From contig CAXHJY010001713.1 in the NCBI GenBank assembly GCA_964016885.1, positions 13,647 through 77,646 on the forward strand: a stretch of DNA of 64,000 nucleotides, read 5' to 3'. The notes beneath the pieces are model-generated. The model ran no database searches and was not told where the DNA came from. It was given only the letters and a program-made list of their open reading frames with translations. Shown one piece after another: positions 7,018 to 56,162 of the stretch (the stretch's first letter is position 1; each line of letters starts with the position of its first letter). The DNA comes from Eledone cirrhosa. Taxonomy: Eukaryota. Made by a program: the position numbers and the translations under genes.

Positions 7018-7146
7018 ATGATGATTTCTCACGAATGAAACAGTTCTAGTCCTGTAGAAGCTTTTCTATATTACAACATATATACTCTGCTATGTATTGA
7101 GTACCTTACTTACTGTGTTCACCCCCGATTCAACCCGGAATAACTT
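7018..7146 (+). mobile_element. HHR-bearing short element, family C (PLE-like), core 5'-eroded
   Basis: aTGATGA-tttc tcac gaat-GAAA-cag ttctagtc ctg-TA-gaagc then gtattgagtaccttacttactgtg...aacccgg; homologous to 36912, 37484 and 44410. Confidence 0.7.
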
Positions 7147-7163
7147 TTATTATATTATATATC

Positions 7164-7356
7164 GGCGGTGGATTGGCAGTATCGGTAGAGGGTCGGACGC
7201 CATGCTTTGACGCATAGAGTTACGTCCCTTGCCATTCTGAGTTCAAATCTCGCCGAGGTTAACTTTGCCTTTCATCCTTACGGGGTCGATAAAATAAAGT
7301 ACCAGTAATCTACTGGGTAATTGCTGGCCTTGTGCCATAAGTAGAAACAATTATTA
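7164..7356 (+). mobile_element. SINE family 1, full-length
   Basis: A-box-like TGGCAGTATCGG, B-box GAGTTCAAATC, core and tail agaaacaattatta. Confidence 0.95.
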
Positions 7357-7619
7357 TATTTAGGAGGAGATTTTTATAGGGGAAAGGGCATTGGTGATAT
7401 ATATATATATATATATATATATATATATATATATATATATATATATATATATATGTGTATATACATATATGTATATATGTGTATATACATATATGTATAT
7501 ATATATACACACAGACGTATACAGTAAAGATCAACACGATGGAGGTAAGGTTGGTGAGGCTAAGCAGTGTGTAAACGAAAAATAATTGGAAACAGAGATA
7601 TAGATGGAAATATAAATAT

Positions 7620-8615
7620 AACGACACCACTACCACCATAGCCACCACCATCACCACCACCACAGCAAACACTGCTACCACCACTATCACCATAGCCACC
7701 ACACCAAACACTGCTATCACCACCACCACTGCTACCACTGCTACCACCACCACCACCACCACTGCTACCACCACCACCACCACTGCTATCACCACCACCA
7801 CCACTGCTACCACCACCACTGCTATCACCACCACCACCTCCACCACTGCTACCACCACCACCACTGCTACCACCACCATCACCACCACTGCTATCACCAC
7901 CACCACCGCCACCACCACCACCAATGCTACCACCACCACCACCGCAAACACCGACATAGCCACCACCGACAACAATATCAAAACCGCCATCACCAGCACC
8001 ACCAACACCACAAACACCAACGCCGCGACCACATTTACGACAATAACCATCAACACCATCACCACCACCACCATCACCACTAGTACATTTACGACAATCG
8101 ACACCACCTTCACAACCACATTTACGACCATAACCAACACAACCACCACCACCGCCACATTTACGACAACGACCACCACCACTACCACATTTACCACCAT
8201 AACCATTACCAACAACACCAACATCACAAATACCACCATCACCAACCCATCACAACATTTACGACCATAACCACCACATATCAACAAAAGAAACATCACC
8301 ACCAACAACAACTACAACAACAACAACAACAAAAACAACGACACAAGCAATCAGCAACACAAACAACAGCAAAAATACAACACAAACAACAGCAACAAAA
8401 ACAACAGTAAAATAACAACAAAATAACAGTAAAGCAACAAAAAGAAACAAAACAACCACAAAACAACAGCAAAGCAACAAAAAAAAACAAGAACACAAAA
8501 AGCAAGAGAAAGCAAAGAGGACAAGAGAACAAGACTGAGTGACAGTACTAGTAAGTGGGAGAGAGAGAGAGAGAGAGAGAGAGAGAGAGAGAGAGAGAGA
8601 GAGAGAGAGAGAGAG
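7620..8615. repeat. ACC/AAC-rich low-complexity tract followed by (GA)n
   Basis: Visible directly. Confidence 0.9.
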
Positions 8616-8889
8616 TTAGAGATAGAGAGATGAAAGAAAGGAAAAAAGAGATATACAAAGAGAGAAGACACGTGAAAATATTAGACGGATGAAAATGAAA
8701 ACACAGAGAGAAGTTTACAAGGTAAAACGAACACGATGATATCTTCATATTACCAGACCCAATGGCATTACTGTTTACCAAAATATCAATGGTTGTTTAA
8801 CTCTAATTACTATACAAGTGATACTAGATAAATAGATACGCTGTGTTCAGTGAGTAGCAATTGATTCCTATCTATGTATTTACATGCAG

Positions 8890-11575
8890 AAGTGTGTGTG
8901 TGTATATATATATATATGTGTATATATATATGTATATGTTTATATATATATGATTGTTTATATATATATATAATTATATATGTATATATGTGCATATTTA
9001 TATATATGATTATATATATATATATATATATATATATGATTGTTTATATATATATATATATGATTATATATATATATATATATGATTATATATATATATA
9101 TATGATTATATATATATATATATATATAATTATATATATATATGATTATATATATATATATGATTATATATATATATATATATATATGATTATATATATA
9201 TATATAATTATATATATGCATATATATCGGTATATATATATATATGTGTGTGTGCCTGTGTATACGAATATATACATAAGTACCAATATATATGCATATA
9301 TATATATATATATATATATATATATATATATATATACACATGTTTATATATATATATATATATATATATATGATTATAAATATACTTATATATGGGTACT
9401 TATGTATATATTCGTATACACAGACACACATACAAACACAGAAAGATATATAACATACGCATAAATGTATATACATTTATAATGGATATACATATATATA
9501 TATATATATACACATGTATAAACACATACGTAGATGTATGTATATATATAATAAACGTGTGTATTTGTTATCTCTCTCATAAATGTATATAAGCAAGTAT
9601 TACACCAAGAAAATTATAGACGTATATATATATATGTGTATAAGTATATCAATATTTGTATTTATATACACACATACATATATACAAACACACATATCCA
9701 TTTATAGATACACAATTATATATATATATATATGTATGTATATATATATGTATATGTATGTATATATATATATATTCATAAAACGGTGTAATTAATAGTA
9801 TATACGCACCTATGTATATTTACATGATATGATCCATATGATATTGTTTATTTCTAACTATTCATGACTATGTATGTTTCTTGTTTCTATTACAGTTTTC
9901 TATCTATCTCTCTCTATATATATATATATATATATATATATATATATATATATATATATATATATATATATATATATATATATATATATATATATATATA
10001 TATATATATATATATTTATATAGTATATATATATATATATTGTTATATGTATATATATAGTATATCAATATATATGTTTTTATCGCCCGCCATCTCTATG
10101 TTATTCTGTCGGACTATATATAAACTTATAAGTATATATATATATACATATATATATATATATATATATATATATGAATTGTATGTATATACACTCGCAC
10201 AAAAAATATATATTTGCATATGTAAACAATCATAAATTTCTATCTATTCTGCGATGAAAACATTTTAAGCTTGAAAGTATGTATTAGATATCTATTAATG
10301 GTAAATATGTATGTACACACATACATACATACATACATGTGTATATATATATTTATATATATATATATATATATATATATATATATATATATATATATAT
10401 ATATACACACATACATATATATATACACACATACATATATATACACACATACATATATATATACATGTGTATATACATATACATATACATATATACATGT
10501 ATACATACATATATATATATACATGTGTATATACATATACATACATTTACATATATACATGTATATATGTACATATATCATATATGTATGCATGTAAATA
10601 TACATATATAAAAAATGGATATACATGTATATCTATATATATACATGTATATATATATATAAAATATATATGCATACATGTAGATATACATATATAAAAA
10701 ATATATATATACATGTAGATATACATATATAAAAAATGTATATACATGTGTATATATATATACATGTATATATATATATAAAATATATATGCATACATGT
10801 ATATATATATATATACATATATATACATATATATATATATATGTATATATATATACATAAATATACATATATATATATATATATATATACATATATATAC
10901 ATATATAATATGTATACATACATATATAAAATATATATACATACATATATATATATATATATATATATATACACATTCAAACACACAGAAACATATATAT
11001 ATATATATATTTATTATATATACAAATACAGACACATATATATATACATATATGATATATACAAACGCACACATATATATACACATATATATATATATAT
11101 TATATGTTTTATATATATATATATATATATATATATATATTTAAATATATATTTTGCATAGCTTGTTATGATCTGTATAATAGTATTTAGTCGGTTCCAT
11201 ATATATATATATATATATATATATATATATATATATATATTGTTATACTTTGGGAGGGTCATGTTGCCAATAACATATATATATATAACATTATATACCA
11301 GCTCATATATTGTTCGAGAAAATATATATACTCCTATATACTTAAAAATCCATTTTTATATATACATAAATGTATACCTACATAAAGTTACGCAAATACA
11401 CATAAACCTTTTATATATATACATTATATATATATATATATATATATATATATATAAATGAAAAGTATAGAAATTGTTGTAGCGAGAAGCTAACAGTATT
11501 CCATAACATATATTCCATAATATATATATATATATATATATATATATATATATATATATATATATATATGCTTGT
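8890..11575. repeat. (TA)n-based compound microsatellite region
   Basis: Visible directly; short unique islands inside. Confidence 0.9.
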
Positions 11576-12154
11576 ATATAACAAACATATGTGTGCACAT
11601 CTCAATATTTCTGTTTGTCTCTCTTATATTAAGCAAAATATCTTAATAACTGCGAATGAAAAATATATTTAACAATTAACATGAAACAAATACACAAGTT
11701 ATTTGTTGTCGTCTTCAGAGAAATAATATTTACTTGACAAATAATCATTGGATATAGTGTACATGGAGACATGTGTTGTTATTGGAGTTGACAATAGCAC
11801 ATGGAGGAGAGATGTAGCTATCTATTTATCTTTCTACCTATCTGTCTAACTATATATGTATGTATCTCTCTATTTATCCATCTTTATATGTCTATGTATC
11901 TAAACATCTATCCATCTAACTATATATGTATGTATCTATCTATCAAAATGTATCTATCTATCTATCTATTTATTTAAATATCTATGTAAACACTCACCAA
12001 TGTAACTTATGCTCAAAAACAGACCCTCATCTAATGTTCTGCATATTTGTTTTCCACTTCCGGTTGTTTTGTGGATCTTATTAAGCCCCATGTATGTTTG
12101 CTGCGACAGCCTATTATTCTTAATATATATATATATATATTTATATTCATATAC

Positions 12155-54960: not shown

Positions 54961-55165
54961 ATAGGAACGAGTAGGACCCCGACGGTTGAGCTCAAGCCGT
55001 TTCGACGGCTAATTCTGGACTGAATGAGTCCAGAATTAGCCGTCGAAACGGCTTGAGCTCAGCCGTCGGGGTCCTACTCGTTCCTATTACCCACTCTACT
55101 ACCCTAAGTATTGAGTACTTTGGTGCGTTATGGTCCACCTGGTTCCTTACCACATTTCCTTCGTT
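54961..55165 (+). mobile_element. HHR element family A, fold-back copy
   Basis: 61-bp arms (54961-55021 / 55027-55087, 1 mismatch); right arm has GAAA-cggct tgagctc agccg-TC (HHR stem III plus GUC site). Confidence 0.8.
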
Positions 55166-55185
55166 ATATATATATATATATATAT

Positions 55186-55700
55186 ATAAGAGAGTATTGA
55201 AGTTTGCTTGAAGCATTGTGGAACAATAAGTAAATATCTTTAGGTCGTTTGGAAGCCTCGACAATGCAAATGGGTAAATCTCCGGGTAACAAGGTCCGGT
55301 GGTGGAGAGAGAGATGTAATTGGGTGTACGTTGAGAAGCGTGGTGTGTATAAGATGTGTGAGATGTGTAGAATGAGGGAAGAGTATAAAGGTTAAAATAA
55401 AAATAACAACACAAGAGAGAGTGTTGTTTTGATTTCGCTGTTTGTTGTTTTGATATTCAAAACAACAAACAGCGAAAGACGCGTTCCGGGCTTGTCCGAC
55501 AGACAAGCTTTTTCCCCCACCCCGGAAAAAAACCCCAGTTGATGGATGTGAATCCGAAATATATAGGGACTATTAAATCTCTCCCAAGGTAACTCTCTCT
55601 TGTGTTGTTATTTTTATTTTAACCTTTATACTCTTCCCTCATTCTACACATCTCACACATCTTATACACACCACGCTTCTCAACGTACACCCAATTACAC
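55186..55700. mobile_element. Family E element: ~108-bp inverted arms enclosing hairpins and a degenerate minimal HHR (55533-55568)
   Basis: Arms ~55315-55422 / 55592-55699; ccc-CAGTTGA-t-ggat gtga atcc-GAAA-tata-TA-ggg. Confidence 0.7.
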
Positions 55701-55774
55701 ATATATATATATATATATATATATATATATATATATATATTTAATTAGAAAGTGAACAACACAATATATAACTA

Positions 55775-55842
55775 CTCCATTACCAAAGGTTTCAGGACTC
55801 TAGACAATATTAACATACGTCTAGTTCGTTCATCAGACAGAG
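55775..55842 (-). ncRNA. Predicted type I HHR with canonical core, in element 55741-55932 with 24-bp inverted arms
   Basis: Minus strand ctctgt-CTGATGA-acgaa ctagac..gtctag agtcct-GAAA-cc ttt gg-TA-atggag. Confidence 0.7.
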
Positions 55843-56047
55843 AGGTTGTGTTGTTCACTTTCTAATTAAAAAGCTCTGTTCTATACATAGAGCACTCTTT
55901 TTTCCTTTGCTTTTTCTTCGGAAATAATTTACACACACACACACACACACACACATATATATATATAACTATTATGTGTTCCAGTCGATAGACTGAGGCC
56001 ATGCTGGGGCACAGCCATTAGCTATAAATATATATATTCATAAAGAT

Positions 56048-56162
56048 ATGTAAAAAACCCGACCGCGGCGCCAAGCGCTTTCGGTCTGTGTTCAGCAGGA
56101 CCTTTCTGAACACACAGGCCAAAACTCCAAAACCGCTGGCGCCGCGGTCGGGTTTTTACATA
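56048..56162. repeat. GC-rich inverted repeat, possible HHR-element remnant
   Basis: Arms atgtaaaaaacccgaccgcggcgcca / tggcgccgcggtcgggtttttacat; minus strand GAAA-gcgc-TT. Confidence 0.7.

Follow-up and report, generated by a model that had tools for sequence, protein, structure and literature searches.

Hammerhead-bearing islands in (TA)n tracts of an Eledone cirrhosa contig and their origin from Penelope-like elements

We analysed a 64,000-nucleotide (nt) stretch of Eledone cirrhosa DNA (assembly GCA_964016885.1, contig CAXHJY010001713.1, positions 13,647 to 77,646; hereafter the window, to which coordinates refer), in which an earlier note had seen about 20 hammerhead-ribozyme mini-elements of 8-9 families, nearly all inside (TA)n tracts. 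Short insertions are indeed there, about 22-24 from roughly 12 families, and they are almost certainly insertion stubs of Penelope-like elements (PLEs). As a count of ribozymes the figure was overstated, most of the motifs being incomplete.

Insertions in the window and their hammerhead motifs

The census was made by BLAST, for which 12 family sequences taken from the window or from other genomic loci served as queries, and listed 21 insertions. One of these (46425-46559) was a low-complexity false match, leaving 20, to which the entries starting at 5589, 12150, 41951 and 56040 were added by eye. In the list below, '+1' is the putative transcription start, and short and long ends are those described in the next section.

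14013-14215, + strand: family D stub with the short end; intact type I hammerhead, core 14020, 116-nt stem II, palindromic stem III
44414-44604, no single strand: family A arms head to head, the long one on - (core 44539) and the short one on + (core 44548)
49085-49430, no single strand: family B pair; short arm on - (core 49150, ending near +1), long arm on + (core 49278); U4A
41816-41926, + strand: family B stub with the short end; core 41864, U4A
36665-36884, no single strand: family B pair; stem II damaged
12591-12726, no single strand: family B arm (-) and tail (+) with a TA tract between them; core eroded
33024-33110, no single strand: family B arm (-) fused to a tail end (+); eroded
7019-7144, + strand: family A' stub with tail; begins within the core; flanks are (TACA)n, not (TA)n
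36910-37063, no single strand: family A' pair; join inside the core, long arm on +
37488-37628, - strand: family A' stub; eroded
5589-5624, - strand: family A-type fragment, tail end only
54964-55164, no single strand: family C head-to-head pair; 3' half of the hammerhead only
54363-54490, - strand: family C stub with tail; 3' hammerhead half only
28448-28498, + strand: family C-related stub; 3' half only
55741-55930, no single strand: family E; complete hammerhead arm on - (core 55836) and tail arm on +
37928-38086, - strand: family F stub; core 38023, U4C in the window copy; 5' boundary matches locus L245
37708-37895, - strand: family G minimal hammerhead; GAAAC box damaged
12150-12295, + strand: family H minimal hammerhead, related to G; eroded
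12335-12440, - strand: family I minimal hammerhead; truncated within the core
23516-23634, - strand: family J stub; core 23628, GAAAC box mutated
44095-44342, - strand: family O stub, absent from the sites named earlier; CUGAGGA core, cleavage triplet mutated
55315-55700, no single strand: family K pair; hammerhead-like core with two changes, common to its relatives
56040-56169, no single strand: imperfect palindrome with hammerhead-like boxes, a candidate only; no relative in the 1.3 Mb of genomic loci compared
41951-42003, - strand: fragment resembling family C stem III; one relative, at 79%

In 19 of the 20 mapped insertions one end or both had a (TA)5+ tract no more than about 35 nt away (34% of random window spots), and in 11 of the 20 there was one on each side (16% of random spots), counts that are partly by construction, most queries originating from the window itself. 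Outside the window, 33 other 10-kb regions held 37 insertions, and 29 of these adjoined TA tracts, as compared with 15% of random spots and 5 of 55 matches to short interspersed elements (SINEs). The reported TA preference is supported. The reported density of one element per 3 kb holds in the window and falls to one per 8.9 kb in the 33 regions; it is a peculiarity of this TA-rich window, TA tracts occupying 12.4% of it as against 4.8% of those regions. The sample outside the window contained 22 hammerhead-shaped motifs in 330 kb (0-2 in shuffles). For the genome of 3.0 Gb this appears to give, by a rough extrapolation, a load of the order of 10^5 such motifs.

Motifs were scored with a descriptor allowing one mismatch per stem, loosened after a no-mismatch version had given 1 strict match (itself probably chance) and 4 relaxed matches in the window. 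Eight motifs, in 6 insertions, look complete. Only four have a canonical core (14020+, 44548+, 44539- and 55836-), to be compared with a shuffle mean of 0.18 and with none of 100 shuffles reaching 4; the other complete-looking ones carry U4A or U4C (41864+, 49278+, 49150- and 38023-). With variant cores the descriptor gave 8 matches against a shuffle mean of 1.1, and two among them, at 33860 and 32917, look like chance. The remaining motifs are truncated or mutated, and the majority of the window copies, judged from their letters, could not self-cleave as written. The Rfam hammerhead models had no match in the window at the gathering score; the best 150 of 578 whole-window Rfam matches were microRNA-type hairpins only, with no hammerhead, and a set of 20 excised islands gave 35 matches at E<=10, no hammerhead among them.

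Of the sites put forward earlier as best cases, 14014+ (the intact family D motif) and 55775- (complete, core at 55836-) proved sound. At 44496- there are two cores, 44539- and 44548+, with altered stem I 5' strands; at 37973- the core 38023- is present with U4C, relatives of this copy carrying CUGAUGA; at 49257+ and 41841+ the cores are there in the form CAGAAGA (U4A), which is family-wide in family B. Among the sites described as eroded, the stubs at 7018 and 12420 begin within the core, damage to the core or the GAAAC box was seen at 12201, 23594 and 37798, and 55533 has the two-change core of its relatives. The site at 55045 is incomplete, the 5' half of the ribozyme being missing, and the CUGA at the centre of its palindrome is not the core.

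At the level of families, CUGANGA, GAAA and UH around three helices make up the consensus of A, D and E, and B and C have a variant core, which in the single full family C motif (locus L135) is U3-A8. In families A and B U10.1-U11.1 replaces G10.1-C11.1, and stem II reaches 116 nt in family D. Across 37 distinct A-type motifs the stems covary at two positions by compensatory change (stem I, C-G in 14 and A-U in 12; stem II, A-U in 18 and U-A in 12), with few independent events behind them in this set of related sequences. In predicted minimum-energy folds the three-way junction was complete only for the full C motif, monomers of A, A', B, E and F folding partly otherwise; dimer folds of D and F are predicted to gain 8-13 kcal/mol.

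Other repeats share the window. The most abundant is a SINE of about 180-200 nt, seldom TA-flanked, which we take to resemble octopod SINEs and which has many copies between 1394 and 58540 (e.g. 7160-7360, 24037-24430 and 42000-42180). Two short TA-flanked modules, 11199-11290 and 11410-11519, have 28 and 11 matches at 92-100% in other loci; no hammerhead was found in them, and they are possibly tail-only stubs. A common repeat at 50712-50990 (45 matches in 31 loci) begins with a palindrome that a TA tract interrupts, includes a tRNA-like part, and is not a hammerhead by the descriptor. We also noted a tandem array of a roughly 46-nt unit over about 2.1 kb (28750-30880), starting near a SINE fragment; a 108-nt near-perfect palindrome around a TA core, without hammerhead boxes (16611-16718); and, at 18700-19800, 21740-21960, 35100-35500 and 60803-61006, sequences resembling decayed reverse-transcriptase (RT) fragments of long interspersed elements, the last with relatives at 87-97% in 11 loci.

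Parent elements and the arrangement of copies

Long copies continue upstream for families A, A', B, C and D, and for A', B, C and D they lead to RT/GIY-YIG open reading frames (ORFs). Walking upstream from family B reached a GIY-YIG frame and then full elements, laid out as hammerhead, tail, ORF, long 3' untranslated region (UTR) and hammerhead. In four loci (L157, L158, L162 and L165) the matching hammerhead and tail stand directly before the ORF, 190 nt upstream. A 713-714-codon frame was present in 19 of the 20 loci examined, and dozens of family B copies have an unbroken frame of 713 codons. [quoted passage not shown] Upstream ORF pieces of A', C and D are 44-55% identical to it; the A' order is ORF, 1.3-1.7 kb of UTR and hammerhead (L206-L208), the family D parent ORF was seen in L249 and L250, and that of family C comes from L293 only.

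Because it has RWR, DKT, CxCx5C, YIG and CxxC, the family B protein was assigned to the Hydra clade, and it follows, by eye, the motifs of Hydra-1_Obim of Octopus bimaculoides (Craig et al. 2021, PMC8557442). On this motif comparison, the A/A', B, C and D islands are the pseudo-long-terminal-repeat (pLTR) ends of Hydra-type PLEs. The elements are new and the clade is known; the objects themselves are known transposon debris. The earlier proposal of a PLE origin, with type I hammerheads, many families and TA targeting, is thereby supported. For the Hydra clade, (TA)n insertion, hammerheads, inverted arms and tails have been published, an octopus being among the hosts, and the E. cirrhosa elements share with it the single ORF, RW(K/R), DKT, the CxCx5C linker, the C-terminal GIY-YIG, a hammerhead near the 3' end, partial tandems and the one-sided tail (PMC8557442). 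Partial tandems forming pLTRs, an inverted 5' arm and an optional tail, traits of endonuclease-containing (EN+) PLEs, are all present. The E. cirrhosa elements differ from the clade, as it is described in the accessible text of that paper, in their long and repeat-rich 3' UTRs (0.9-3.7 kb), in tails of 58-136 nt rather than 30-40 and in cores that vary family-wide, with U4A in B and with U3-A8 in the only full copy of C.

PLE hammerheads that stand alone, or in pairs on opposite strands 100-700 bp apart, have been attributed to truncated PLEs (Cervera and de la Pena 2014, PMC4209133). Those described here resemble them in being of type I, in many families per genome, mostly single or in opposite-strand pairs, with a palindromic stem III and a U3-A8 variant. 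Departures from the accessible part of that account are U10.1-U11.1 for G10.1-C11.1 (A and B), the 116-nt stem II of D, and a load of about 10^5 motifs (our extrapolation) as against the thousands reported.

In locus L063 an A' hammerhead has a Neptune-like ORF 1.3 kb upstream, which was considered as a parent and rejected, being a nested insertion in the TA end of the element; other family loci with visible downstream sequence are without a Neptune-like ORF, and Neptune-like proteins had no match in the window. Elsewhere, L049 and L053 (G000:C6:60239500-60249000 and G000:C7:363000-372500) hold a PLE of Neptune-like type. About 385 nt past its stop codon lies a minimal hammerhead, which resembles those of the Hydra families in having U10.1-U11.1 and a CUU triplet. 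A further abundant RT/GIY-YIG family (L027, L029 and L031) has no hammerhead in the 1.5 kb downstream. First-look candidates in the genome numbered 66,591 for the family B protein and 10,595 for Pfam GIY-YIG, pointing to a very large PLE load to which Pfam is partly blind.

Two 3' ends, both fixed, were seen in every one of the six families measured: a short end 13-60 nt after the cleavage site and a long end 89-196 nt after it. The 60-130 nt given earlier for the distance from motif to 3' junction roughly matches the long end. Head-to-head copies are frequent, one arm being short and the other long. Genome-wide, exact head-to-head palindromic junctions numbered 592 for B, 960 for D, 3,892 for C and 1,000 for A', as compared with 1, 0, 0 and 0 in reversed-pattern controls. 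Among 323 core matches of families A-E no head-to-tail array was found, same-strand core pairs closer than 700 nt being either split by TA tracts or themselves tiny local duplications.

These arrangements bear on whether the islands are independent non-autonomous elements of the retrozyme kind, with a cycle of their own through self-cleaved or circular RNA and borrowed PLE enzymes. Short copies do occur in hundreds at 98-100% identity (first-look candidates, many near-identical: D 574, A 912, E 1,581), in family B they far outnumber the ORF-bearing part by contig depth, and at least eight families (E-O) are tied to no ORF, family E having none within 1.5 kb upstream in the loci examined. The long copies of A, A', B, C and D, the Hydra-type ORFs of four of these, the lack of head-to-tail arrays, ends out of register with the cleavage site, the U4A core throughout B and the half-ribozymes of C make such a cycle very improbable. 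The islands are like non-LTR retrozymes (PMC7229834; bioRxiv 10.64898/2026.07.22.740005) in being short and non-coding, in carrying type I hammerheads and in their relation to PLE pLTRs; unlike the head-to-tail arrays giving circular RNAs described in those sources, they are solo or head-to-head pieces of ORF-bearing elements, and since they form no head-to-tail arrays they are not retrozymes as defined in PMC7229834. The earlier picture of separate ribozyme mini-elements thus gives way, for four families, to ends of long RT/GIY-YIG elements. A true retrozyme-like array does exist at L056:7568-9053, with four head-to-tail copies of another hammerhead family at about 490-510 nt spacing, a CUGAUGA core and a palindromic stem III; it was not found in the window.

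5' ends, TATA boxes and the extra G

The 5' ends of stubs gather at a fixed site, always the A of a YYA. This wall precedes the core by 6 nt in A and A', by 5 in B, by 7 in D and by 13 in E. In family C it lies 43 nt after the core start, inside loop II, so that the site would follow the promoter and not the ribozyme fold. The family D stub at 14013-14215 begins at the inferred +1 A, and the family C pair at 54964-55164 holds just the 3' hammerhead half because its arms begin at the putative +1 inside loop II. In family D loci chosen by tail end only, with L221 and L222 taken as one, 9 of 29 arms stop within a 7-nt window at the stem I 5' strand and 11 stop across about 260 nt further inside; the remaining arms continue upstream. 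In C and D more arms end exactly at +1 than at any other position (12 of 41 in C; 12 of 48 in D, unbiased loci).

Of 25 family A loci, 18 have a TATA box, TATAAATA, at -29; it stands at -30 in A' and at -31 in L155, the flanking sequence having diverged; family C's one full copy has TATTTAAA at -29. The idea that family A stubs spread without a long parent was dropped on account of the TATA-bearing upstream sequence of these 18 loci. Comparable TATA and initiator (Inr)-like motifs, solo pLTRs and palindromic inverted junctions have been proposed or described for Adineta vaga Penelope pLTRs (Arkhipova et al. 2013, PMC3846280), whereas the D. virilis Penelope promoter is internal and TATA-less (PMC2377424), unlike A, A' and C here.

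From these ends we consider it probable that many of the stubs which Hydra-type elements leave in (TA)n are complete copies of the first 60-340 nt of a capped, uncleaved transcript. They might instead be ordinary extreme 5' truncations of the 3' pLTR, with RT stalling or cDNA folding back at the ribozyme and no transcription start involved. That the wall of A, A', B and D stands at or within the stem I 5' strand would agree with this, as would the self-priming proposed for head-to-head junctions (PMC3846280), the many arms ending at scattered positions and the long (+) arm of 49085-49430, which runs 120 nt upstream of the wall into 3' UTR and also has a tail. A stall or fold-back at the ribozyme does not account for a wall inside loop II (C) or 7 nt before stem I (E), for the TATA spacing kept across three diverged A subfamilies, or for the whole core being kept by both arms of hundreds of palindromes. 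We therefore regard truncation as unlikely, the added base at the junctions being a further point against it.

This base is frequently a G. It preceded the end in 21 of 56 arms ending at +1 and in 22 of 142 ending elsewhere (p=0.001), and, with loci picked by a near-+1 query left out, in 15 of 31 and 21 of 129 (p=3e-4). A hand tally of the first 50 of the 592 family B junctions gave G before +1 in 32 of 65 unambiguous arms, the others having T (the genomic base, 18), C (9) or A (the fold-back base, 6); six arms stop at or carry G(-3), five of them with an extra G. The first 50 of the 960 family D junctions gave G 9 times and the genomic C twice. In B and D the added base is thus G, which is neither the genomic nor the fold-back base. 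In L1, an untemplated G is taken as cap copying (PMC9341517).

Several observations weigh against a capped start. Ends exactly at +1 are rare in B (5 of 87) and A' (2 of 33), these sets being enriched for long copies; no TATA was seen at -30 in B, D or E, and for family C a single locus supplies the TATA. In A' the G was present in 25 of 28, yet fold-back on stem I likewise predicts a G, and in the listed family C junctions, tallied by hand, a templated T (about 46) outnumbers G (12), with a second stop 4 nt upstream. As R2 junctions also acquire non-templated G and T in vitro (PMC13000458), the extra G is not proof of a cap. On the side of identity, the at least eight families with no ORF linked to them count here too, and Pfam gave no match on partial family B/Hydra-type frames, nor Rfam any for ribozymes.

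The walls of A, A' and B can moreover be read as YAG splice acceptors, CAG or TAG after pyrimidines. The templates would then be spliced or partly spliced RNAs with an exon 2 starting from stem I, as in D. virilis Penelope, whose intron ends at the helix I 5' end (PMC4209133). No constant exon 1 precedes the wall, the arms include the A of the AG, and D and E have no AG there; a splice site is accordingly hardly credible.

A capped start remains our preferred account of the wall, a feature not seen in the accessible description of the Hydra clade (PMC8557442). The Adineta vaga study favours self-priming on an antisense template while leaving sense and antisense open (PMC3846280), whereas the extra G here is at the sense 5' end. 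Our searches of the accessible literature turned up no account of PLE stubs bearing a cap or start-site signature.

Proposed mechanism and meaning

The anatomy, ends, TA preference and junction bases described above would fit the following route, in which we infer the start site, the cap, twin priming and the lack of cleavage. RNA polymerase II would start at a YYA at, near or within the hammerhead, with a TATA about 30 nt upstream in A, A' and C. By analogy with the in vitro behaviour of PAc, a Poseidon element of Anolis carolinensis (Frangieh et al. 2024, PMC11167929), the RT-endonuclease would nick both strands of a TA tract and prime at two fixed internal RNA sites, giving the short and long ends. 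When priming falls in the 5' copy, the cDNA would pass the intact ribozyme to the cap, often add a G, and leave either a stub of 60-340 nt or a head-to-head pair, of which one arm is short and the other long; from the 3' copy, priming would give ordinary 5'-truncated or full-length insertions. Cleavage would be unnecessary for insertion, and stubs, being without an upstream promoter, would decay. Stubs ending at a capped start would then be copies of the 5' end of a sense RNA that had not been cleaved.

PAc shares two internal RT start sites that set the tail, AT-rich DNA nicked and extended on both strands, and uncleaved RNA as main template, and its hammerhead mutants insert normally (PMC11167929). 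It belongs to another clade, and no transcription start or cap signature is mapped in the accessible part of that study. In E. cirrhosa, the intact family B frames together with the fixed U4A core suggest that cleavage is dispensable.

A broader reading, which we put forward tentatively and with some doubt, is that the stubs form a genome-wide fossil map of PLE starts, with capped RNA beginning at or inside the hammerhead, twin priming writing the pairs, and the hammerhead acting as a cap-removing off-switch. PLE inverted insertions, the RNA strand that is copied and the role of the hammerhead are stated as open questions in PMC8557442 and PMC3846280, and a cap-like G at the sense 5' end beside TATA/Inr motifs makes exact, testable predictions. 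If this reading is true, the question of sense versus antisense template would be settled. The off-switch would be dimer-dependent and hence copy-number sensitive, rather than a processing step; family C would escape self-cleavage through its start inside loop II, and a stub in (TA)n might even come to have a TATA-like box at -30 once more and return to being transcribed. The roughly extrapolated 10^5 motifs would also constitute a large natural library of hammerhead variants missed by Rfam.

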